This document shows positions 4,776 to 63,762 of a DNA stretch of 64,000 bases, piece after piece. This stretch comes from Methanobacteriota archaeon. GTDB lineage: Archaea; Thermoplasmatota; Poseidoniia; Poseidoniales; Poseidoniaceae. Below the pieces are notes generated by a model, which did no database searches, was not told the origin of the DNA, and saw only the letters and a program-made list of their open reading frames with translations. Numbering within the stretch: position 1 is the stretch's first letter; each line of letters opens with the position of its first letter. The stretch lies in the NCBI GenBank assembly GCA_002718195.1, contig PBDU01000017.1:53818-117817 (forward strand). Reading direction: 5' to 3'. The translations under genes and the position numbers were made by a program.

Positions 4776-6326
4776 TCAATTAAATTCCCAATCTTCTGAA
4801 ACCCTGGCCCTGACTCTTCTATTTCTAAAACGTCTATTGGATATTTCTTGAGCTAAATCATTTGCAATTTCAACTGGGACCTCGATTACAGCCATTCTAG
4901 CAAGCAAATTGACCTTGCCTATCTGCTCTCCATCCACGACTCTGTTCGAAGTTGCGAGTTTCAAGACATCCCTCACGTTAGCTCCCTCACTCTTACCAAT
5001 GTTGATGATTATTGCACAAGTTCCTTGATTCTCTTCTTTTTGGGAACTTGAATATGCATTGGATATTGCCCTAAGTGCAATTTCATGGAGATCTAAACCA
5101 TTCGATAGAAGTGCATCTAATATGTCCTCTGATAGCGGGTTTGGTTTTGCTTCCATTAATTCATCTACAGAGTCATACAGCATTGCAGAATCTACATCTT
5201 CTTTTGTTGGCGCCTGGATATCATAAATTTCATTTCCGGATTTTCTAAGTTGTTTTAGACGATTCTTAGCCCTGGAGCCTGCAAAAATAATGCTTGTACC
5301 GTTCCTTCCCGCTCTTCCAGTTCTTCCAGTTCTATGGACATAAACTTCCTTTGTCATAGGCAGGTCGTCGTGTATAATCAAATCAACATGATCAACGTCT
5401 AGCCCGCGTGAAGCAACATCTGTTGCAATCAATAACTCTAGTTTACCTTCTCTAAATTGATTCATGCACCTTGACCTTTCATTCTGTGTGAATCCGCCGT
5501 GCAATACGCCTGCTCTAACTCCTTTGACGGCTTTCTGCAACTCCTCGACTCTTGCTCTTGTCTTACAGAAAACAATGGTTGCTCTTGGCTTCATTACTTT
5601 CAGCAAGTCTTCAATGACCTTTGGTCTCCTACCTTTATTGATTTGAATTACAAATTGTTCAATTGATGAAGGCGGAGATTGTTTGCCATCCATTCCTATT
5701 CTTACAGGATCTTGCATGGATTTTTCAGCAAATTTTCTTACGTGCTTGGGAAATGTAGCGGAGAAAAGAAGCACCTGTAATTCTTGATTCATATGGCTTC
5801 GAATGAAATTCAAATCCTCTGCAAATCCCATTGACATCATTTCATCCGCTTCATCAAGAATGAGCATTCCAAATTTGTCTAAGGATATCGTTTTCCTTTC
5901 TAGATGGTCTCTCATCCTTCCAGGAGTTGCGATAACTATCAGTTTTCCCTTCTTAGAAAGGTCTTTTTTCTGTGTTGAATATGATGCTCCACCAATGATT
6001 ACAGCAATACCGCTTTTATTGAAAGCATCTATCATCTGAAGTTCGGTACCAACCTGTTGAGCAAGCTCCCTTGTTGGGCACAAAACTAGAGCATTATCTG
6101 GAGAGAGTAAAGCAGGAATTCCAAATGCAAGTGTCTTTCCGGATCCAGTAGGAGAAGTAGCGAGTATATCTGCGCCGTTTTGAGCAATCGGTATTGCTTC
6201 TGCTTGGATAGGTGTCATTTCCTTAAATCCAGCTTTTGTGATACCTGTTTGAATCGATTTATTCAATTCTAGGTTTTCAAACGAATTGTTGCTCATGCTG
6301 AACCACCACCGAGTGGTGCCCGGCAA
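4776..6326 (-). CDS. DEAD-box ATP-dependent RNA helicase
   Basis: Q-motif (TPIQAEAIP), motif I ATSPTGSGKTLAF, motif II ILDEADEMM, motif III FSATF, motif VI HRTGRTGRAG; likely true start at the MSNNSFENLEL Met (about 6296). Confidence 0.92.
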   Translation of the reverse strand: MPGTTRWWFSMSNNSFENLELNKSIQTGITKAGFKEMTPIQAEAIPIAQNGADILATSPTGSGKTLAFGIPALLSPDNALVLCPTRELAQQVGTELQMIDAFNKSGIAVIIGGASYSTQKKDLSKKGKLIVIATPGRMRDHLERKTISLDKFGMLILDEADEMMSMGFAEDLNFIRSHMNQELQVLLFSATFPKHVRKFAEKSMQDPVRIGMDGKQSPPSSIEQFVIQINKGRRPKVIEDLLKVMKPRATIVFCKTRARVEELQKAVKGVRAGVLHGGFTQNERSRCMNQFREGKLELLIATDVASRGLDVDHVDLIIHDDLPMTKEVYVHRTGRTGRAGRNGTSIIFAGSRAKNRLKQLRKSGNEIYDIQAPTKEDVDSAMLYDSVDELMEAKPNPLSEDILDALLSNGLDLHEIALRAISNAYSSSQKEENQGTCAIIINIGKSEGANVRDVLKLATSNRVVDGEQIGKVNLLARMAVIEVPVEIANDLAQEISNRRFRNRRVRARVSEDWEFN

Positions 6327-54950: not shown

Positions 54951-57512
54951 TTAGCGACCAAATTTTTCATCGGTCTCAAGTAAGAAAATTGCTTCCCTTG
55001 TGAGTTTGTAACAGTTCTTCATCCCCATTTTCCTCCTTTCTACTAAGCCATATTTCTGAAGTGTTCTCAAATGGTGTGATATCAATTGCTGGCTTTTATC
55101 TAATCTCTTAGCCAGTGCGGCTTGGGTTGGGAATTCCCCCAATAATCCATCATCATCGAGGATTGTGAGGATTTTTCCTTGCAGAGATTTTGGATCAGGG
55201 CTAAGTGGTGGGACTGGTAACTCCTGCTCCTCAGTATAAGGATTCATGTCGCTTGTAAGAGGATAGTATCTCACCAATCTTCCATCTTTCTTTCTCCAAA
55301 TCTTATCTTCTTTTTCAAGAATTCTGATGTGATGAGTACACTGTCCATTAGACATCTGCATGGCAGCCATTAGTGCTCTAAAGTGACACCCAGGGTTTGC
55401 TGTGAGATAACCCATAATCCTTCCACGCTGGTATTTTCCATCCGTGGTTTCACTGGTTTTTCCAACTAAGCCAACTAACCAGAGTCCCATTGCAGTACTT
55501 GGAATTCTCAAGCTCTCATTGCTTATTATCGCAGTGACGAGTAAGGATAGCAAAGTAGTGCTTGCAATTACAGAAATTACTGGAATTACATTGTTAGCGG
55601 GGACTATTTGTTCTTGAATTTCTACTGTTTGTTCAACGGTTTCTTCTTCAATTAGTTGGATTTCTTCTACGTCGTCATAGATATAGACAATCTCTGTAAC
55701 ATCAAAATTTTGTATTTGGTAGTTCGAACAAGCAAGGGATGTATCAGAAGTCAATGAGCCTGTGAAAATACCAGATTGACCTTGTTGCGGAGCCCAATCG
55801 GTAATTCCCAATGCGCTATTCAAACCAAACTGAGTTTCGTCTTCTTGAGTTAATACCCAGCAAGTACCTTGCTCAGTCAAAAATCCAGTCCAAGTACCTA
55901 TTAGTTCAATCTCATTGATTATCGATTGTTCAGGAGCATCAGCCTCTTCTTCTGTTTGATCCTCAAGTGGCCAATTAAATTCAATAACGTGCTCGTTTAT
56001 TGAACGGGTTGCGAGTTTAATCTCGATTATGTATGTTCCATCCTCTAGGGAGCCACCTTCCGAGTTTAACATGATTATTTCATCTGTTTTGAGTATAAAT
56101 TCTGCTCCATCTGAAAGAGAGAAAGATCTACCATCGTATGTATCACAAACTGTCTGTCTAATCTGTAACCTTTGATTTTCGAGATTCTTCAGGGTAAGTT
56201 CAATCGCACAAGGTCCTTGCCAAGTCAAGTATGAGTTGCTTTGACTACTAAGTATAATGTCCATGTTAAAGCCATTTTCTGTTTCAGATAAATCAGCCTC
56301 GAGAGATAGTAAACTTTCTTCTCCGCATGGTTCTGCAAAGTTACGCTCAAACTCGAATGTTTGAGATTTGGATATTCCCAACTCTGGAATGCTCGCAACT
56401 ATGATGTATTCGCCAGTGCCTACAGAGCATCCATTTACATCAGTGAAGAACCAATTTGGCATCTGGAGATTTAGTACGCCCTGTGTAGGCACAACCCTTT
56501 CTTGTAACATTTCATTGCAGCCGCTTAATTGCTGGCTATCAAAAACAAGATTCCCTATTGCATCATAAATCCAGTAAACTGCACGACAGGAATTAGTAAA
56601 TTCCAGTTCAATATCACTGTCAAGAATATTTTCTAAGAGAATACTTGGTGCAAATGTAGAGTCTGAAGTAAGGATCTGTCCCGATGTTATACCATTTAGG
56701 TTAGAGGTCATTCCGTCAATCACCGGTTTAGGTAATAATGAAAATGTTTCACTCCATTCACCATTTGGTGTGGAGATTATCATCTCGGATCTTGTCTCGA
56801 TGTCGAAACTTAAGTCGATAACGTGATGCAATCTAGTCTCCCATCCCTCTAGTCCAATTTCATCAAAACAACTTGGACCAATTCTTTCCTCTCCGCTAAC
56901 TGAAATTATCAATTTGCAGAATTGGTCATCTGGCATAGATACGGAATTTTCATCGTAATTCGTCCACGTAAGTCTAGCAATTTCAGCATTATGTTCTGAA
57001 AAACCAGCAGAGGAGGACACTACCTCAACCTCCAAATTCAGGCTTTCAGGCCATTCCATTGGAGCAAAGAACTGAACATCAAATGACTTTGACAAATCAG
57101 TTCCGGTGTGTAACGATTCTATTGTGTATATTCCGCTTTCAACCAGTTGTTCGTTGATTTCAAAGTTCCAAAATGTCGAGTATGATTCACTGGTTTCGCC
57201 AGAATCAAGTGTTTGTCCACGAATTTGACCTCTGCAATTTTCTTCACCATTTTGAATGAGATTGCTTTCAGAGTCGTAAATGTTGACCACTATTCCACAT
57301 GTGGGGTCGTCATCAAAGGAAATAGAGTCTCCTGAATTCATCAGCCAAGAATTGAAGTTGATGCTGTCTCCTGAGACATACCACTCTTCAGCCTCGAAAT
57401 CAGTCTCAATTGACAGATTTACTTCCTGTTGAGCAGATATCCCCATCGGATATATTGCAAGAAGTAAAACCACGCACAAAGAGAGAATTTGCATGGTTCT
57501 CACTCTGCCCAT
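54951..57512 (-). CDS. membrane-anchored protein: signal peptide, large extracellular Cys-paired repeat domains, TM helix, two cytoplasmic winged-helix domains
   Basis: MGRVRTMQILSLCVVLLLAIYPMGISA; repeated C-x-[IV]-x-x-IYD-x-x-x-NL-x(6-8)-C units; TM VIPVISVIASTTLLSLLVTAIIS; wHTH-like PGCHFRALMAAMQMSNGQCTHHIRILEKE and QAALAKRLDKSQQLISHHLRTLQKYGLVERRK. Confidence 0.65.
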   Translation of the reverse strand: MGRVRTMQILSLCVVLLLAIYPMGISAQQEVNLSIETDFEAEEWYVSGDSINFNSWLMNSGDSISFDDDPTCGIVVNIYDSESNLIQNGEENCRGQIRGQTLDSGETSESYSTFWNFEINEQLVESGIYTIESLHTGTDLSKSFDVQFFAPMEWPESLNLEVEVVSSSAGFSEHNAEIARLTWTNYDENSVSMPDDQFCKLIISVSGEERIGPSCFDEIGLEGWETRLHHVIDLSFDIETRSEMIISTPNGEWSETFSLLPKPVIDGMTSNLNGITSGQILTSDSTFAPSILLENILDSDIELEFTNSCRAVYWIYDAIGNLVFDSQQLSGCNEMLQERVVPTQGVLNLQMPNWFFTDVNGCSVGTGEYIIVASIPELGISKSQTFEFERNFAEPCGEESLLSLEADLSETENGFNMDIILSSQSNSYLTWQGPCAIELTLKNLENQRLQIRQTVCDTYDGRSFSLSDGAEFILKTDEIIMLNSEGGSLEDGTYIIEIKLATRSINEHVIEFNWPLEDQTEEEADAPEQSIINEIELIGTWTGFLTEQGTCWVLTQEDETQFGLNSALGITDWAPQQGQSGIFTGSLTSDTSLACSNYQIQNFDVTEIVYIYDDVEEIQLIEEETVEQTVEIQEQIVPANNVIPVISVIASTTLLSLLVTAIISNESLRIPSTAMGLWLVGLVGKTSETTDGKYQRGRIMGYLTANPGCHFRALMAAMQMSNGQCTHHIRILEKEDKIWRKKDGRLVRYYPLTSDMNPYTEEQELPVPPLSPDPKSLQGKILTILDDDGLLGEFPTQAALAKRLDKSQQLISHHLRTLQKYGLVERRKMGMKNCYKLTREAIFLLETDEKFGR

Positions 57513-57566
57513 GTGTTAACGCAGGTAACTCATCCCTTGAAAGGGAATTGGTGCATACAGTGTGTA

Positions 57567-58334
57567 ATGGCGAGTACATCACCAGTGGTTTCTGAGTTGA
57601 TTTCAAATGATGAAATCGTAGTGCTGCAAGCCCAGTTAGGAGAGTGGGATAACCTAAATCACCTCTTGGTTTGCGCGAAGAGTAAAAGCGCTGTAATAAT
57701 CGACCCATTTGACGCTAAATTTTGGTTTGATATTTGTCTGGAGAATGGTTGGGAATTAGAACAAGCATGGCTCACACACAGCCATTGGGATCATTCCAAA
57801 GGCATTGAGGAATGTTTGGAATTAGGTGGTCCAAATTTCCAAGTAATATTACACGAAAAAGAGCTTGAGAGGGGCTGGAATGGGCCTCATACTCATTTAT
57901 TGACAAACTCAGAACTTTCAAGTCACCCTCTTGGAATAGGGAAACTGACATTCCAGGCTCATTGCACTCCTGGGCACACTCCTGGGCATCTTACCTTCAC
58001 AGGAAATGGAGTAGTCATCTCTGGTGACTGTTTGTTCTTAGGGCGCTGTGGAAGGGCTGACCTCTATGGTGGAGATGAAAGCAAACTCAGACTAAGTCTT
58101 CGGTATTTGAGGGATGAAATCTCCCATATTCAAGACTGGATGGTTCTTCCTGGGCATCAGTATAAGCTCGAAGACGGCTCAAATCCCACCTCACTAACAG
58201 TCGCTGAATTGTTGATTAACAATCTTGCAATCAAAGCAGTTGATAATGATGAAGATTGGAATAGTCTTGATTTCCTCTCATTTGAGGATTCCTTGGCAGA
58301 AAAGGCAAGAAGACAGCGTGCAATGCAATCCTAA
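57567..58334 (+). CDS. MBL-fold metallo-hydrolase (glyoxalase II-like)
   Basis: THSHWDHSKG (HxHxDH), downstream His/Asp ligands HTPGH, D in SGDCLF; ORF-track start 57489 overlaps upstream gene, MASTSPVV Met chosen. Confidence 0.8.
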   Translation: MASTSPVVSELISNDEIVVLQAQLGEWDNLNHLLVCAKSKSAVIIDPFDAKFWFDICLENGWELEQAWLTHSHWDHSKGIEECLELGGPNFQVILHEKELERGWNGPHTHLLTNSELSSHPLGIGKLTFQAHCTPGHTPGHLTFTGNGVVISGDCLFLGRCGRADLYGGDESKLRLSLRYLRDEISHIQDWMVLPGHQYKLEDGSNPTSLTVAELLINNLAIKAVDNDEDWNSLDFLSFEDSLAEKARRQRAMQS

Positions 58335-61300
58335 TCATAGATTATCTAAGTCTATCATACCAGGCATGGACGCTCTTTCTTCCTCGACTCTCTGCTGTTC
58401 ATATTGTTGCCAAACCGGAACTTGTTCAGGTCCAGTCCAGCCCAATTCTCTAGCTTTTTCCAGGTCTCCCTGACCGACGTAATAGTCAATCCATTCCTGT
58501 CTTCGCAACTCTTCATCTTCCATGGCCATATTGACCATTCTTTCCTCTGCTCTTCTTTTAGCACTCTTTCTGCCGGCAATTTGTTTTGAAATCATAGCCA
58601 CGAATATGAGGGTAAGCATCAGTGCAGCAACTCCACCAAGAACTAACATTCCAGTATCGCTCCCGCCTGAGGTAGAATCTACTTCTCCATCTCCTGTATT
58701 CTGATTCAGAGTCGGGTCTTCAGTGATCAAGCAGGTTACTTGACCTCTGATTCCCGCACTAATTGAGGGGTCCCATTGGCAAGGGTCATTGATATTGGAA
58801 ACACCATCTCCATCATCATCTCTGCAACCGTACCTATCAATAGTTGAGTTGCCCCACTCATTCCTACAATCATCGTTCTGGTATCCAGTGAAGTTATCTC
58901 CGAAACCATCTCCATCCGCGTCTCTGCTTTGAGATGTCCTCAACGGGAAAGCGTCAGGAATTGCACCTTCGGGATTATCTCCAACTCCGTCTCCATCCAT
59001 GTCGGACCATTGCGATACGGTATCGGGGAATGCGTCTCCGTTTTGCTCTCTGATTGTAATTAGATTACCAGGATTTTCTTCATCCTCAATGGTTTTGTTA
59101 ACCCAAGTATAATTGTCACCATATCCATCGCCATCAGAATCTTCCCACTGTGTTCCATCGTTAGGGAATGTATCATCATCATCGGCATAACCGTCTCCAT
59201 CTGCATCTGGACAGCCTTGATAGTTATTCATGGTAGCTTCTCCGTATACGTCTGGACAATCATCACCACCAGGAATGTTTTCATCACCATATCCATCTCC
59301 GTCAGAATCAGCCCACTGGAACGGGTCGTTGGGGAATGCATCTAGCGGATCAGTGACTCCATCAGCATCTGTATCAGGGCAACCTCTTGTTAGAGGATTG
59401 TTGGATGTTCCATAGGATTCAGGGCAAACATCCGGCTCATTTCCGTCCTGATTGTCTCCATATCCGTCACCGTCCGTGTCATCCCACTGAGTAGGGTCTG
59501 CAGGGAATCTGTCTCCATTATTTCCACCAGGGTTGTCACCTCTGCCATCACCATCAGAGTCTTCCCATTGACTTGCATCATCAGGGAACTGATCAGGATT
59601 GTTTCCATCTGGGTTGTCCCCTCTGTTGTCTCCATCTCTATCTTCCCACTGGGTTGAGTCATCAGGGAAAGGGTCTCCAGCATTTGAGTAGCCGTCACCG
59701 TCTCTGTCAGGGCATCCTAATCTATCTTCAGTTGATGTTCCTGAATCACCAGGGCAATCGTCAGCATTATTTCCGGATTGATTGCTTCCAAAACCATCTC
59801 CGTCATCATCGCACCACTGTGTTGGGTCATTAGGGAATGCGTCTGCTCCGTCATTACAAGGGCTGAGAGTAGGCCAACCAGGGGTTGGGTCTGACCAGCC
59901 ATCGCCGTCAGAATCAGGGCAACCAAGTCTATCAAATTGTGAATCTCCCCATGCATTTGGACAACCATCGGGTCTGCTACTGGCTTGCTCATCACCAACC
60001 CAATCTCCGTCAGAATCAGCCCACTGGGTTCTGTCTAGAGGGAATACGTCAACATTAGTTGCGCCAGTAACTAATTCTCCTGGCCACTCCATTGGTCTAA
60101 TGTTAAGCCAAGAGTTGTTAGCAAAGTTGTCTCCATAGCCGTCTCCATCAGTATCGTTCCATTGAGTTGGGTCATTAGGGAATGCATCTCCTCTCTGATT
60201 TATGTGATATTGCTGATTATCCACGTCATACAGATAGTTGTCTCCATAGCCGTCCATGTCCATATCTGCCCATTGTTCGGGGTCAGATGGCCAAAGGTCC
60301 CCCTCGTCTGACCACCCGTCTCCATCTGCATCAGGGCAGCCGAACCTGTCTTCAGTTGAATTACCCCAAGTTAGGATGCAAGCATCTGGTTGGAAAGCGG
60401 GCTCAGGATTGTCACCAAAACCATCGTTATCAGTGTCATTCCACTGGGTTGGCTCATCAGGGAATTGATCTACCTTGCCATCTCCTTGGTCTGTAGTATT
60501 CCAACCATCTTGGTCCGGGTCAATGTTAGCAAACCAAATGTAGAAACCTTCATCATTTCTTCCAAAGGCTTGTGCGATATTCATTCCAGTTGGGGACCAT
60601 GAAACACCATTGTTTTGTCCGCAGTTGTTACCATTACCAGTGCTCGTGCAACCTCCCGGTCTTGGTTGGCTGAAAGAGTCGATAGATTGCCCGGACGCAA
60701 CATCAAAAATCAAAGCCGTTGCGCCATCGCTGTTATACCATCCCATACCGAATATTACTTGAGTGCTGTCTGGGGAAAAATCGGTTCCGTAGCAAGATGT
60801 AGATCCAATCTTAGTCCACGAATTTGTCCAAGTCGAAGTTTCATACATTCTTAGTTTGGAATTTCCAGAATTCTGGTCATATCCCTCACACACAGAAATG
60901 TATTCACCATCATGCGACCATGCTATAGAATTGACAGTACCAGTAGGAGATGATATTGATTGAATTGTTGACCAATCTGTTGTATCAACAACGTAAGCGT
61001 CACCAACTGTACCAATTGCTAGCTCTCCATTTGGTCCGAAGTCAACAGAATGGAATCTGTCTTCGCTTCCTGGATTTAGATTTTGCAATACATTAGCGTT
61101 TGAAGTATCAATTACTCTAACTACTCCGTTAGTACCGCCCCAACCGCTTCTGCCAATTGCAATTGCAGCCATGCTTCCGTCTTCTGATAGGTCGATGTCA
61201 TAAGTGAAATCACCTCCGCCGACATCTGCTGAAATTGACCCATGGATATCGGTTAGGTTGCTTGCATGGTATAATTTTACGGTGTCATCATCGCCAGTCA

Positions 61301-61775
61301 CTCCGATGTATCTTCCATCACCTGACCAAGAAACAGACCCAACATCCCCTCCACTGTAAGCAACAACAGACCTGTCATTTACTCCAGTGCTTGCATTCCA
61401 GACTCTTAGATATCCATTTTCATCTGCAGTCGCAACCCATTCGCCATCTGGCGAATAATCTGCATCATTGAAATCATAATTTTGCGGTATCGAAAATTCC
61501 TTTTGGAAATTTGGATTTGTGCTTGTCCATGAATCAGCCCAGTCGCTAGTCCCATCCCCGTCTCTGTCTGGACAACCTACTTTGTCTATGGTCGAAGTCC
61601 CAGCAGCATAAGGGCAATCATCACTTGCATCATCAGTTCCATCCCCATCAGTGTCAACAGCAGAAACAGTTGGAAGGATAACAGAAGCAACAAGGATTGC
61701 AACTAAAAAAGCAGGCAAAAAATGACCTTTTCTGTCTTCATGCGAAATAGCCATAAAACTCCGAGCATGCATCAT
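58335..61775 (-). CDS. giant surface protein: N-terminal signal/anchor, WD40-like beta-propeller region, long array of thrombospondin type-3-like Ca-binding repeats, C-terminal TM helix plus approximately 80-aa cytoplasmic tail
   Basis: AFLVAILVASVILPTVSAV; propeller-like repeats (SPDGEWVATADENGYLRVW, SWSGDGRYIGVTGDDDTVKLY, AWSHDGEYISVCEG); over 20 D-x-D-G-D-G units; C-term GMLVLGGVAALMLTLIFVAMISKQIAGRKSAKRR. Confidence 0.8.
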   Translation of the reverse strand: MMHARSFMAISHEDRKGHFLPAFLVAILVASVILPTVSAVDTDGDGTDDASDDCPYAAGTSTIDKVGCPDRDGDGTSDWADSWTSTNPNFQKEFSIPQNYDFNDADYSPDGEWVATADENGYLRVWNASTGVNDRSVVAYSGGDVGSVSWSGDGRYIGVTGDDDTVKLYHASNLTDIHGSISADVGGGDFTYDIDLSEDGSMAAIAIGRSGWGGTNGVVRVIDTSNANVLQNLNPGSEDRFHSVDFGPNGELAIGTVGDAYVVDTTDWSTIQSISSPTGTVNSIAWSHDGEYISVCEGYDQNSGNSKLRMYETSTWTNSWTKIGSTSCYGTDFSPDSTQVIFGMGWYNSDGATALIFDVASGQSIDSFSQPRPGGCTSTGNGNNCGQNNGVSWSPTGMNIAQAFGRNDEGFYIWFANIDPDQDGWNTTDQGDGKVDQFPDEPTQWNDTDNDGFGDNPEPAFQPDACILTWGNSTEDRFGCPDADGDGWSDEGDLWPSDPEQWADMDMDGYGDNYLYDVDNQQYHINQRGDAFPNDPTQWNDTDGDGYGDNFANNSWLNIRPMEWPGELVTGATNVDVFPLDRTQWADSDGDWVGDEQASSRPDGCPNAWGDSQFDRLGCPDSDGDGWSDPTPGWPTLSPCNDGADAFPNDPTQWCDDDGDGFGSNQSGNNADDCPGDSGTSTEDRLGCPDRDGDGYSNAGDPFPDDSTQWEDRDGDNRGDNPDGNNPDQFPDDASQWEDSDGDGRGDNPGGNNGDRFPADPTQWDDTDGDGYGDNQDGNEPDVCPESYGTSNNPLTRGCPDTDADGVTDPLDAFPNDPFQWADSDGDGYGDENIPGGDDCPDVYGEATMNNYQGCPDADGDGYADDDDTFPNDGTQWEDSDGDGYGDNYTWVNKTIEDEENPGNLITIREQNGDAFPDTVSQWSDMDGDGVGDNPEGAIPDAFPLRTSQSRDADGDGFGDNFTGYQNDDCRNEWGNSTIDRYGCRDDDGDGVSNINDPCQWDPSISAGIRGQVTCLITEDPTLNQNTGDGEVDSTSGGSDTGMLVLGGVAALMLTLIFVAMISKQIAGRKSAKRRAEERMVNMAMEDEELRRQEWIDYYVGQGDLEKARELGWTGPEQVPVWQQYEQQRVEEERASMPGMIDLDNL

Positions 61776-61878
61776 TAAAAGGAATATCGGTTAAATTGCT
61801 CAACAATAAAGAAACACTGGAGCGGAAAAATGCCCAATTTTCCGAAATGCTTGAACATATAATCTCTGTGAGGTAAGC

Positions 61879-63429
61879 GTGTCTGAGGGCAGTAAGGTCA
61901 ACATCGCGGTCGCAGACCGCGTTTTGCTTCACCTATTTGCTCACTATGAACAACTCGATCAATACATGGTCACATCCGATCTAACCAGGAACGGAATCGC
62001 TCAGGCATGTGCACAGCACCCTCCAAATGTTAGTCGAGCAATGAAAGATCTTCTTCTTGATGGCTTGGTCGAAGAGCATTCGAGAAGCATAATCAACGAG
62101 GATAGGAGGAAAAAAGCCTGGCAACTAACTCCAGCAGGGCATTCCACTGCAAAAAGACGCTACAATGACCTTGCAAAAGTGAAGGTCCTCCTTAGAGGTA
62201 AAGATGGTAAATTACTGGAAATAGAAGCGGGCGAAGCTGCTGACCGTTTATCTACTGATATCGGCTTACTTCAGATTCTACTTCATTCGCAGTATGAGGG
62301 TGCACTTACCTATGGCGACATCAGATTTGGATTAATTAAGAAAAAGAATGAGGGTAAAGATACGCCACAGCCAGGAAGATTGGTACCTTTCCTCGGAGCT
62401 CATGCTACCTACCACACAGAGGCTCCTCAGACGAGAGAAGTTCATGGCAGAGAATCTGAAAGGGAACTAATAGACTCTTGGATGGAGGAAAAAAGTCCTT
62501 GTCTGGTGGTTCATGGAATCGCAGGAATTGGAAAATCAACACTCGTTTCCCACTGGCTTTCAAAACATAAAATGGAGAATAAAAATCTCTCTGTGTGTTG
62601 GTATCCATGCCATCCATGGGACAAGGAATTGGGGCTTGCAACAAGCCTTCTTCACAGATTTGGCGTGGATGAAAACCATGATCCATACAATTTAATCGAG
62701 ACTTTACCCCTCAAACCCGGAGCAAAGATGGATGTTGAATTATGGTATAGGCGCTTGCTTGCATATCTAACCGATGCTAACGCAATCAGGGAGCGTTTCA
62801 GTCGACGAAAAGGCGGGCCTCCACCATATTGGCTGATTATTTTAGACGACGTACATCTGATCGAGAATGAGTGTAAAGAGTTGTTAACTGCTCTTTTGAC
62901 TTTGAGCACAAAAACCCCGCTAAGGCTTGTAATGATCTCCAGAGCAACTCTTTCCTTCTATGATAGGCGTGACGTTTTTACAAGAAAAATCGTGCAAGAA
63001 ATGCCTCTAAAAGGCCTGACATTGGATGAAGTCAAAATTTGGATTGAAGACTTTGATCCGGAATCAAACCTTGACATCGATGAATTATTTGCACAAATTG
63101 GAGGTCATCCATTGGCACTTGAGTTTTTGGAACTATACGGTACAAAAATTCACGGGGATTGGTTGAAGTTCTTAGATCAAGAGATTCTAGAAAGGCTACC
63201 GGAAATGGAGAGGAACTTACTCTCTACGCTTGCTGTTAGCGAGAAACCTGTGGTTTGGGAGAAACTTGCAAAAGCGGTTGGCTGGAATGGAAACCCCCCT
63301 GAAAATCTTCTATCTCATGGGCTGATTATAGAGCTAGAAGATGGCATGTGGTTGCATGAGGCACTCAGAGAACGCCTCCTACGGGAAGTCGGAGCAAAGA
63401 AGGAAGAAAGACGAGAATCTCTGATTTAA
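61879..63429 (+). CDS. winged-HTH plus P-loop NTPase (AAA/STAND-like) putative regulator
   Basis: N-terminal MarR-like wHTH (TRNGIAQACAQHPPNVSRAMKDLLLDGLVEE), Walker A CLVVHGIAGIGKSTLVSHWL, Walker B-like WLIILDDVHLIE; GTG start. Confidence 0.6.
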   Translation: MSEGSKVNIAVADRVLLHLFAHYEQLDQYMVTSDLTRNGIAQACAQHPPNVSRAMKDLLLDGLVEEHSRSIINEDRRKKAWQLTPAGHSTAKRRYNDLAKVKVLLRGKDGKLLEIEAGEAADRLSTDIGLLQILLHSQYEGALTYGDIRFGLIKKKNEGKDTPQPGRLVPFLGAHATYHTEAPQTREVHGRESERELIDSWMEEKSPCLVVHGIAGIGKSTLVSHWLSKHKMENKNLSVCWYPCHPWDKELGLATSLLHRFGVDENHDPYNLIETLPLKPGAKMDVELWYRRLLAYLTDANAIRERFSRRKGGPPPYWLIILDDVHLIENECKELLTALLTLSTKTPLRLVMISRATLSFYDRRDVFTRKIVQEMPLKGLTLDEVKIWIEDFDPESNLDIDELFAQIGGHPLALEFLELYGTKIHGDWLKFLDQEILERLPEMERNLLSTLAVSEKPVVWEKLAKAVGWNGNPPENLLSHGLIIELEDGMWLHEALRERLLREVGAKKEERRESLI

Positions 63430-63762
63430 TCAGAAGTCATCAGCAGTAACATGCTGGTCAATCCAATTTGAAAGCTGTGCCTTTGGTTGGGCACCGGATA
63501 GGTTGCCAACGACTTTTCCATTTTTGAACATGTAAAGGGCAGGGATGCCTCTTACGCCTAGTTTTGCGGCATTCATTGAGTCAGTGTCAGTGTTCACTTT
63601 TACGATTTGAACATCATCTCTTTCACCAGAAATTTGGTCAAGGACCGGTGCAATCATCTTGCATGGGCCACACCATGGTGCCCAGAAGTCAACCAAGACA
63701 AATTCGTGATTTGCTAAAGTTGAGTCAAACTCTGCATCTGTTATGTTGAGTATTTCTGCCAT
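63430..63762 (-). CDS. trxA: thioredoxin
   Basis: WAPWCGPCKMIAP active site, 110 aa. Confidence 0.93.
   Translation of the reverse strand: MAEILNITDAEFDSTLANHEFVLVDFWAPWCGPCKMIAPVLDQISGERDDVQIVKVNTDTDSMNAAKLGVRGIPALYMFKNGKVVGNLSGAQPKAQLSNWIDQHVTADDF

Follow-up and report, generated by a model that had tools for sequence, protein, structure and literature searches.

Most STAND proteins (signal transduction ATPases that have numerous domains) carry an arm and a repeat sensor, made of tetratricopeptide repeats (TPR), WD40 or leucine-rich repeats, after their nucleotide-binding core, an arrangement that is typical and not obligatory (PMC6468293). Lisa et al. (NAR 2019) showed for PH0952 of Pyrococcus horikoshii, crystallised without its N-terminal DNA-binding domain, that arm and TPR sensor grip the nucleotide-binding domain (NBD) by the helices of its initiator-specific motif (ISM) and so keep the core closed on ADP (PMC6468293). 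An arm and a TPR-type sensor are likewise parts of MalT of E. coli (PMC6468293); its ATP- and inducer-dependent oligomerisation puts DNA-binding domains on repeated promoter sites and is restrained by inhibitor proteins (PMC10427625, PMC6468293). The gene analyzed here lies in a stretch of 64,000 nucleotides from a Poseidoniales archaeon (assembly GCA_002718195.1, contig PBDU01000017.1, positions 53,818 to 117,817, forward strand), referred to as the window and numbered from its first letter. At 61879..63429 it encodes a P-loop NTPase headed by a winged helix-turn-helix (wHTH), which is an arm-less, sensor-less and order-wide form of the archaeal PH0952-type wHTH-STAND regulators. Its most likely role is that of a transcription factor dependent on ATP, and it represents a trimmed form within an archaeal family that is already known. 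The gene and the segments of its product were located as follows.

61879..63429, plus strand: complete wHTH-STAND NTPase gene, 516 amino acids (aa), GTG start, stop codon included, with full-length homologues
61909..62175, plus strand: MarR/ArsR-type wHTH, residues 11-99, recognition helix HPPNVSRAMKDL at 62017-62052
62176..62310, plus strand: small middle domain, residues 100-144, a beta-hairpin and two helices (AlphaFold2 (AF2) pLDDT 82-91), kept also in TPR-bearing relatives
62311..62424, plus strand: linker, residues 145-182, in which blocks YGDIRFG and PGRLxxxxGAHATY, invariant in Poseidoniales, flank a variable stretch
62425..62958, plus strand: STAND NBD, residues 183-360, from Pfam AAA_16, Foldseek and invariant motif residues
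62515-62541, plus strand: Walker A GIAGIGKST, residues 213-221
62833-62856, plus strand: Walker B LIILDDVH, residues 319-326
62935-62949, plus strand: sensor-1 Arg355 in ISRAT
62644-62721 and 62788-62832, plus strand: lineage-specific insertions in the ISM region of the NBD
62959..63150, plus strand: STAND helical domain (HD), residues 361-424, from the alignment to PH0952, with the GxP-type motif GGHPLAL at 63100-63120 (residues 408-414)
63151..63426, plus strand: STAND winged-helix domain (WHD), residues 425-516, with the MHD-like MWLHEALRERL at 63346-63378 including His493

Residues 183-516 form a complete STAND core (NBD, HD and WHD) with all nucleotide-switch positions intact. Pfam AAA_16 matched above its threshold (E 1.2e-10, 42.6 bits for a cutoff of 32.6), and weaker matches were obtained to NPHP3_N, AAA_22, nSTAND6, nSTAND1 and NB-ARC. 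Of the families brought into play by the first-pass annotation, a reading of the DNA letters made before this analysis, AAA_16 was thus recovered, NB-ARC appeared weakly, and ATPase_2 (PF01637), which we take to be its 'Arch_ATPase', stayed under threshold (21 bits vs 33.2). Seven positions (G213, G216, G218, K219, D323, D324 and R355) were invariant in the 32 aligned members of the Poseidoniales family and in its distant relatives, as were G409, H410, P411, L412 and H493 of the HD and WHD, distant TPR-bearing relatives included. Among PDB sequences, PH0952 (6mfv) alone matched the ATPase part significantly (E 1.2e-6 for the NTPase sequence by itself, 2e-14 for the family profile), and the match ran through the HD and WHD. 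GGHPLAL aligned with GHPLML of PH0952, and residues 425-516 with its WHD (chain residues 204-298), LHEALRE standing against VHDMVRE; the AF2 topology of this domain comprised helices and a beta-hairpin wing. PH0952 was also the top Foldseek match (5e-10), ahead of MalT (8bob, 6e-10) and then CED-4, Avs3 and Apaf-1. The best solved match in both sequence and fold is therefore PH0952, although it remains remote from the NTPase and did not enter the word-based homologue lists, and the ISM of the NTPase carries insertions specific to its lineage.

An invariant motif, FYDRRDV (residues 360-366, 62956-62976), was located 5-11 residues past the sensor-1 Arg. It is common to the TPR-bearing relatives and absent from PH0952, and its position recalls a feature of AAA+ proteins that is normally missing from STANDs, the box VII/arginine-finger region.

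The N-terminal winged HTH is real, since the family profile matched MepR/MarR chains of the PDB (E ~4e-3) and Pfam HTH_Crp_2 matched as well (E 5.8e-5, under its threshold). In the AF2 model (32-sequence alignment, pLDDT 79, pTM 0.66) the wHTH folded confidently and was MarR-like by fold comparison, with the recognition helix at residues 47-58. About 98 of the 150 modelled N-terminal residues aligned to MarR chains, so that the middle domain is apparently without a MarR counterpart; it possibly has a role in dimerisation. MarR family regulators, in comparison, are stand-alone homodimeric wHTH proteins of about 140-160 aa whose dimerisation helices lie at the N- and C-termini. The linker was modelled with low scores (pLDDT 45-57), and relatives showed variable length or insertions at its place.

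The first-pass annotation had described an N-terminal wHTH fused to a P-loop NTPase, and this description holds: the strings it quoted are all present, the fold is MarR-like and AAA_16 is above threshold. Its suggestion of a minimal STAND or ATP-dependent switch is consistent with the intact STAND motifs, with the STAND cores at the top of the Foldseek list and with the lack of a sensor. The HTH-first order is likewise present, but it is not unusual as had been proposed, because it is the known architecture of the PH0952 branch of STANDs, in which predicted transcription factors (wHTH-NOD-arm-TPR) have an ArsR/MarR-like wHTH ahead of the core; the NTPase is tied to this clade through its best matches. 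With both domain order and family already known, the NTPase is no new protein class.

The arm and repeat sensor typical of STANDs are lost in the Poseidoniales NTPase. The protein ends about 20 residues past His493, at the close of the last WHD helix of the AF2 model, and no TPR or other repeat family was matched in it or in its best 120 homologues. The helical C-terminus of about 200 aa noted earlier does exist, but it consists of the remainder of the NBD with the STAND HD and WHD, and no separate sensor follows. In PH0952, by contrast, a three-hairpin arm and a six-repeat TPR sensor autoinhibit the NBD. What sets the Poseidoniales protein apart is the full loss of arm and sensor together with a remodelling of the ISM surface, which is their contact in PH0952.

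A profile search run exhaustively over 1.84 billion representatives returned 2131 relatives, with E-values below 1e-30 for 319. Behind the single Poseidoniales representative, full-length matches came next in proteins of about 780-1000 aa covering profile positions 6-258 and the core at 320-510, with source labels such as 'TPR repeat protein / DNA-binding MarR family transcriptional regulator', 'MalT / MarR family' and 'tetratricopeptide repeat protein [Thermoplasmata archaeon]'. Ten of these long relatives were scanned with Pfam. Strong C-terminal TPR arrays (TPR_12, TPR_MalT) were found in nine, and the tenth (P0153), a partial sequence, had no TPR match; all ten were above threshold for ATPase_2 and/or NB-ARC, and N-terminal matches were of HTH_Crp_2, MarR, PadR or TrmB type. 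Residues 4-506 of the NTPase aligned collinearly with these wHTH-NOD-TPR relatives (26-27% identity; hhalign E 1.6e-62, probability 100%), and the TPR region of the relatives begins where the Poseidoniales protein stops. Thermoplasmata wHTH-NOD-TPR proteins (P0141, P0146, P0148, P0138) share the wHTH, the middle domain, the NOD motifs and an FYDxRD motif with the NTPase, whereas their 300-500 additional C-terminal TPR residues are missing from it.

Conversely, neither the linker blocks of Poseidoniales nor the CWYPC pair nor the GGPPPYW insertion occurs in these Thermoplasmata proteins. Features found in Poseidoniales only were the linker blocks, the invariant CWYPC pair (Cys240/Cys244) and the two ISM-region insertions before Walker B, SLLHRFGIDExHDPYNLIETLPLxPG and RERFxxxxGGPPPYW. 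The two cysteines form a CxxxC pair in SVCWYPCHPWD (residues 238-248, 62590-62622), invariant in Poseidoniales and not in relatives. WD40/TSP3 or thioredoxin neighbours, which flank the NTPase gene as described below, were not shared by any of the three contexts of TPR-bearing relatives examined.

Two other Thermoplasmata proteins displayed variations of this architecture. P0327 (521 aa; L087, 8001-10821), from one of these three contexts, comprises the wHTH and core only; 20 bp further on lies a TPR gene of its own (411 aa), the wHTH-NOD-TPR architecture being here split, or fissioned, in two. P0176 (1061 aa) harbors a DUF835 domain (residues 171-289) between wHTH and STAND core, at the position of the Poseidoniales linker.

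Other described systems resembled the NTPase in part, and MalT is their archetype as far as function is concerned. The DNA-binding domain of MalT (8BOB), the second-best fold match, is a C-terminal LuxR-type HTH, whereas Pfam gave no LuxR/GerE match in the NTPase, whose HTH is N-terminal and MarR-like; the MalT model NF003420 reached 13.2 bits vs a cutoff of 537. CED-4 of C. elegans (2A5Y, 4M9S, 3LQQ) was a high-ranking fold match with the top TM-score of the list (0.40). It is the best-known STAND that consists of just an effector and a core, lacking a repeat sensor, and CED-9 controls it in trans; it differs from the NTPase by its CARD effector, its role in caspase activation, its eukaryotic origin and its sequence (~16% identity). 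ATPase_2, Orc1/Cdc6 and the NTPase are all archaeal P-loop ATPases combined with winged helices. The first two families bind DNA through a C-terminal winged helix, whereas in the NTPase the C-terminal winged helix is the regulatory WHD of STANDs and DNA binding is assigned to the N-terminal domain. Identities as Orc1/Cdc6, MalT, HdaA, RFC or TniB/TnsC were considered and rejected, as they appeared as trace P-loop matches only, far under cutoffs.

The open reading frame (ORF) of the NTPase is a real gene and no chance reading frame. The ORF listing of the window gave a single ORF spanning exactly 61879..63429 on the plus strand; the upstream in-frame stop ends at 61854, leaving the frame open from 61855, the next alternative start is a TTG at 61924, and a GAGG lies 6-9 nt 5' of the GTG. 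A search of 5.8 billion protein clusters yielded 501 matches at E<=1e-3, of which the best 120 were all full length (~498-560 aa) and 56-99% identical to the NTPase, with source names including 'AAA family ATPase [Candidatus Poseidoniales archaeon]', 'ATP-binding protein [Euryarchaeota archaeon]' and 'DNA-binding MarR family transcriptional regulator'. The entire Poseidoniales family collapsed into one full-length representative (P0121) when clustered at 50%.

The phylogenetic distribution was profiled in a scan of one genome per GTDB species, and a relative was found in 428 genomes. Loci were viewed for the best 80 of these, which were all Poseidoniales metagenome-assembled genomes (MAGs) or single-cell genomes, the Marine Group II (MG-II) chromosome CM001443.1 among them. 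Two MAGs named as bacteria ('uncultured Rhodobiaceae bacterium', L052, and 'Salipiger bermudensis', L055) bear the Poseidoniales NTPase locus in full synteny; these contigs are evidently archaeal contamination of bacterial bins.

Across an alignment of 32 members the mean column identity was 66%, with invariant residues spread over the full length. Identity to the window protein ranged from 57 to 65% (median 62%, 85 loci, the 95%-identical L007 being set aside), compared with 67% for leucyl-tRNA synthetase (LeuRS), 57% for the thioredoxin, 57% for the surface protein and 36% for the neighbouring membrane HTH protein. Conservation of the NTPase is thus of housekeeping grade, about level with LeuRS. 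The gene was single in each locus examined, and no paralogue was present in the window, where a second 516-aa ORF (4776-6326, minus strand) is unrelated; neither tRNA nor Rfam families were found within the window. On one 4.7-kb contig (L039), the intergenic element described below occurred twice (positions 117 and 2477) along with two NTPase matches, probably through a repeat in the assembly and not by genuine duplication.

The genes and elements adjoining the NTPase gene were the following.

58335..61754, minus strand: surface protein, divergent neighbour and candidate target, ~1139 aa, membrane-anchored, with WD40 beta-propeller and Ca-binding thrombospondin type 3 (TSP3) repeats, start revised to M8
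61775..61802, no strand assigned: motif 1, nTAAAAGG-NN-TTGTGGT-N5-TGTKCA, window copy TTAAAAGGAATATCGGTTAAATTGCTCA, from an expectation-maximization (EM) search
61851..61856, plus strand: motif 2, TTGAAC (TTGA[AG]), 28-32 nt 5' of the NTPase start in 76 of 83 upstream regions
63430..63762, minus strand: thioredoxin, convergent neighbour (Pfam Thioredoxin, E 7e-32), abutting the NTPase stop codon

The NTPase gene was found in a fixed setting across the loci compared. By tblastn over 86 loci, the surface-protein gene was divergent from it in all 82 loci with enough upstream DNA, which bears out the adjacency noted in the first-pass annotation, and the thioredoxin gene was convergent in 85 of 85. 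Called genes in six relatives (57-62% identity) showed the same core arrangement: a WD40/TSP_3 surface protein of ~1140-1200 aa was divergent across ~100-130 bp in five of them (the gene call of L001 being broken up), and the convergent thioredoxin lay 1-5 bp past the NTPase stop in all six. Outer genes varied in these relatives, both upstream, where a metallo-beta-lactamase gene and a membrane HTH gene were present or absent, and downstream, where either ribulose-phosphate epimerase and glycosyltransferases or hexapeptide/PGM genes were found. The surface protein itself matched Pfam WD40/beta-propeller families, and TSP_3 matches were obtained in its orthologues.

The intergenic region displayed a conserved element, motif 1 (28 nt, 28 bits), which the EM search recovered in 82 of 83 distinct upstream regions. 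It is composed of a TATA-like box and two conserved G/T-rich blocks, TTGTGGT and TGTKCA, which start about one helical turn apart, and its near-invariant columns (1.6-1.8 bits) alternate with spacer columns of ~0.1 bit. This pattern goes beyond shared ancestry alone, since mean information was 1.06 bit within the element and 0.17-0.35 bit in its flanks. Motif 1 lay exactly 20 nt from a conserved CCAT (the surface-protein ATG) in ~75 of 82 loci, and its distance to the NTPase start was variable (47-127 nt). In a scan of ~1.96 million positions (window and all loci, both strands), the full motif occurred essentially once per locus (72 matches in 71 loci). Motif 1 is a candidate promoter or operator of the surface-protein gene. 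The degenerate specific half had its sole exact match in the window at 61785-61802; a relaxed search for further window copies gave 3 matches vs 2.1 expected, only the intergenic one being exact, so that no regulon can be deduced from the window.

The listed start of the surface protein (ATG at 61775, ORF 58335..61775) is probably wrong. It was moved to Met8 (ATG at 61754) because of the conserved ATG at its fixed distance from motif 1. The possibility that motif 2 is an inverted half-site of the distal TGTTCA of motif 1 was dropped, as the variants, compared by eye, do not covary between clades.

On balance, the NTPase is probably a nucleotide-switched, sensor-less STAND transcription factor, whose most probable target would be the shared divergent promoter of the surface-protein gene. 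Domain identities, intact motifs, the missing arm and sensor, conservation, synteny and the cis-element are results of the analysis; that the protein binds DNA, oligomerises on ATP and regulates this target, and in which direction, is predicted, with a mechanism modelled on MalT, PH0952 and Apaf-1/CED-4. The effector would be the N-terminal MarR/ArsR-type winged helix, tied via the middle domain and the conserved linker to the STAND core. The ADP-bound core would be closed and monomeric, with the nucleotide lying between NBD-HD and WHD and clamped by the His493 that belongs to the MHD-like motif. Once ATP replaces ADP, the core would open and be driven to oligomerise, and the clustered wHTH domains would then bind DNA cooperatively. 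The oligomer may act on the divergent promoter region shared with the WD40/TSP3 gene and bearing the order-wide 28-nt element, in which the helical-turn spacing of the two blocks would suit oligomer binding.

With arm and sensor lost, the input to such a switch must come from elsewhere. Candidate inputs are the nucleotide state of the cell, the invariant linker docked against the remodelled face of the ISM, or another protein acting as a partner in the way that CED-9 controls CED-4 and MalY/MalK control MalT. The surface-protein orthologues (65 compared) possess a cytoplasmic tail of ~85 aa past the transmembrane (TM) helix (window 58335-58600) with invariant positions W..YY..G....A..LGW......P.W. 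This conserved tail suggests an intracellular partner, and one may speculate that it is itself the partner of the NTPase. A redox input through Cys240/Cys244 and the neighbouring thioredoxin, whose gene is on the opposite strand, would be a guess.

A more specific proposal, that this core STAND of the order is read out in trans, appeared doubtful to us. According to it, the surface-protein tail, or ATP/ADP or redox state via CWYPC and thioredoxin, would hold or release the NTPase, which would oligomerise on the shared promoter. If true, the planktonic archaea that are most abundant in surface ocean waters would govern their main adhesin or surface protein by outside-in feedback, in an archaeal parallel of CED-9/CED-4 or MalK/MalT control.

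Several points weigh against a switched regulator of the surface-protein gene. The AF2 alignment was shallow (32 sequences, effective number ~2), and the linker was placed without confidence. Deprived of arm and sensor, a STAND might stay constitutively active or have no switching at all. The synteny could partly reflect a general collinearity of Poseidoniales genomes, which is conceivable because LeuRS is also near the NTPase locus. Motif 1 may be just a strong core promoter for TBP/TFB or another factor, and its window copy has diverged (TATCGGT for TTGTGGT), falling under the 60% threshold of the position weight matrix.

The foremost alternative is less likely but quite conceivable: the NTPase would be a STAND transcription factor acting only on itself or on a dispersed regulon, and the element would be the usual core promoter of a surface protein that is expressed at a high level. 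Such a promoter would be expected to show the fixed spacing between element and ATG, the TATA-like half is generic (692 matches), and neighbours such as LeuRS are syntenic as well. Moreover, the specific half diverged in the window while the recognition helix of the wHTH is unchanged. Against this, the specific half TTGTGGT-N5-TGTKCA is nearly confined to the intergenic site (73 anchor matches and 6 weak others in the 1.96 million positions), and the divergent pair was kept in all 82 loci with both outer flanks variable.

We consider it improbable that the NTPase is a DNA-associated ATPase with no part in transcription (a chromosome-organising or scaffold ATPase), its wHTH serving as a general DNA anchor or protein-interaction module. 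Housekeeping-grade conservation, one gene per locus examined, the lack of a sensor domain and the arginine-finger-like placement of FYDRRDV would all fit such a role, but a role in regulating transcription is predicted or proven for the nearest homologues and for the nearest relatives of known structure (PH0952, MalT), and the wHTH is of the sequence-specific MarR/ArsR type.

An antiviral or conflict STAND (Avs/NLR-like) with the DNA-binding domain as effector is highly unlikely. Although Avs3 and Avs4 were among the fold matches and nSTAND6 and nSTAND1 matched weakly in Pfam, the best PADLOC family reached E 0.0099 (12-13 bits) and Avs3a E 0.027, the NTPase has no nuclease, protease or TIR effector and no sensor, and no defence genes were found among the called neighbours. 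Defence genes are typically patchy and fast-evolving, whereas the NTPase is syntenic and ~62% identical across the order.

Hardly credible is an Orc1/Cdc6-type or other housekeeping AAA+ with a spurious wHTH, the finding that would have refuted the first-pass annotation: Orc/Cdc6 chains did enter the Foldseek list from rank 16 (E 1e-7 to 1e-5) and TIGR02928 left a trace match, but STAND chains rank higher, PH0952 was alone at sequence level, TIGR02928 gave 10.6 bits vs a cutoff of 181.3, the STAND-specific GxP and MHD-like His motifs are present, and the confidently folded MarR-like wHTH is not spurious, so that, as far as these tools reach, the difference from Orc1/Cdc6 noted earlier stands.

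The uncultured Marine Group II archaea (Poseidoniales) rank with the most abundant archaea in surface ocean waters, and the NTPase is one of few clearly regulatory proteins conserved across the order, its gene being fixed beside that of a large surface protein of adhesin-like type. No paper on this NTPase family, and none addressing gene regulation in Poseidoniales, came up in literature searches; Rinke et al. treated thrombospondin-type genes solely as adhesion markers, and adhesion and surface properties have been discussed as an ecologically important trait (PMC6461757). Should the NTPase control the surface-protein gene, it would provide a handle on the regulation of these properties. For STAND biology, it offers a natural experiment on a nucleotide-binding core freed of its autoinhibitory arm and sensor, and its compact size (516 aa) should suit structural and biochemical work.

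Two further genes upstream of the surface-protein gene were considered. The metallo-beta-lactamase-fold gene (57489-58334, plus strand) was present in some related loci only; its listed TTG start overlaps the start of the divergent 853-aa gene, and a start near 57567 is likelier. The 853-aa protein (54951-57512, minus strand) begins with a signal/TM segment, to which a large portion outside the cell and a TM helix are added, and bears two winged helices on the cytoplasmic side, HTH_HVO_0163_N at residues 695-755 and an ArsR/MarR-like one at 795-827. It was ~36% identical among loci, was missing from some, and resembles a membrane-tethered one-component transcription factor.

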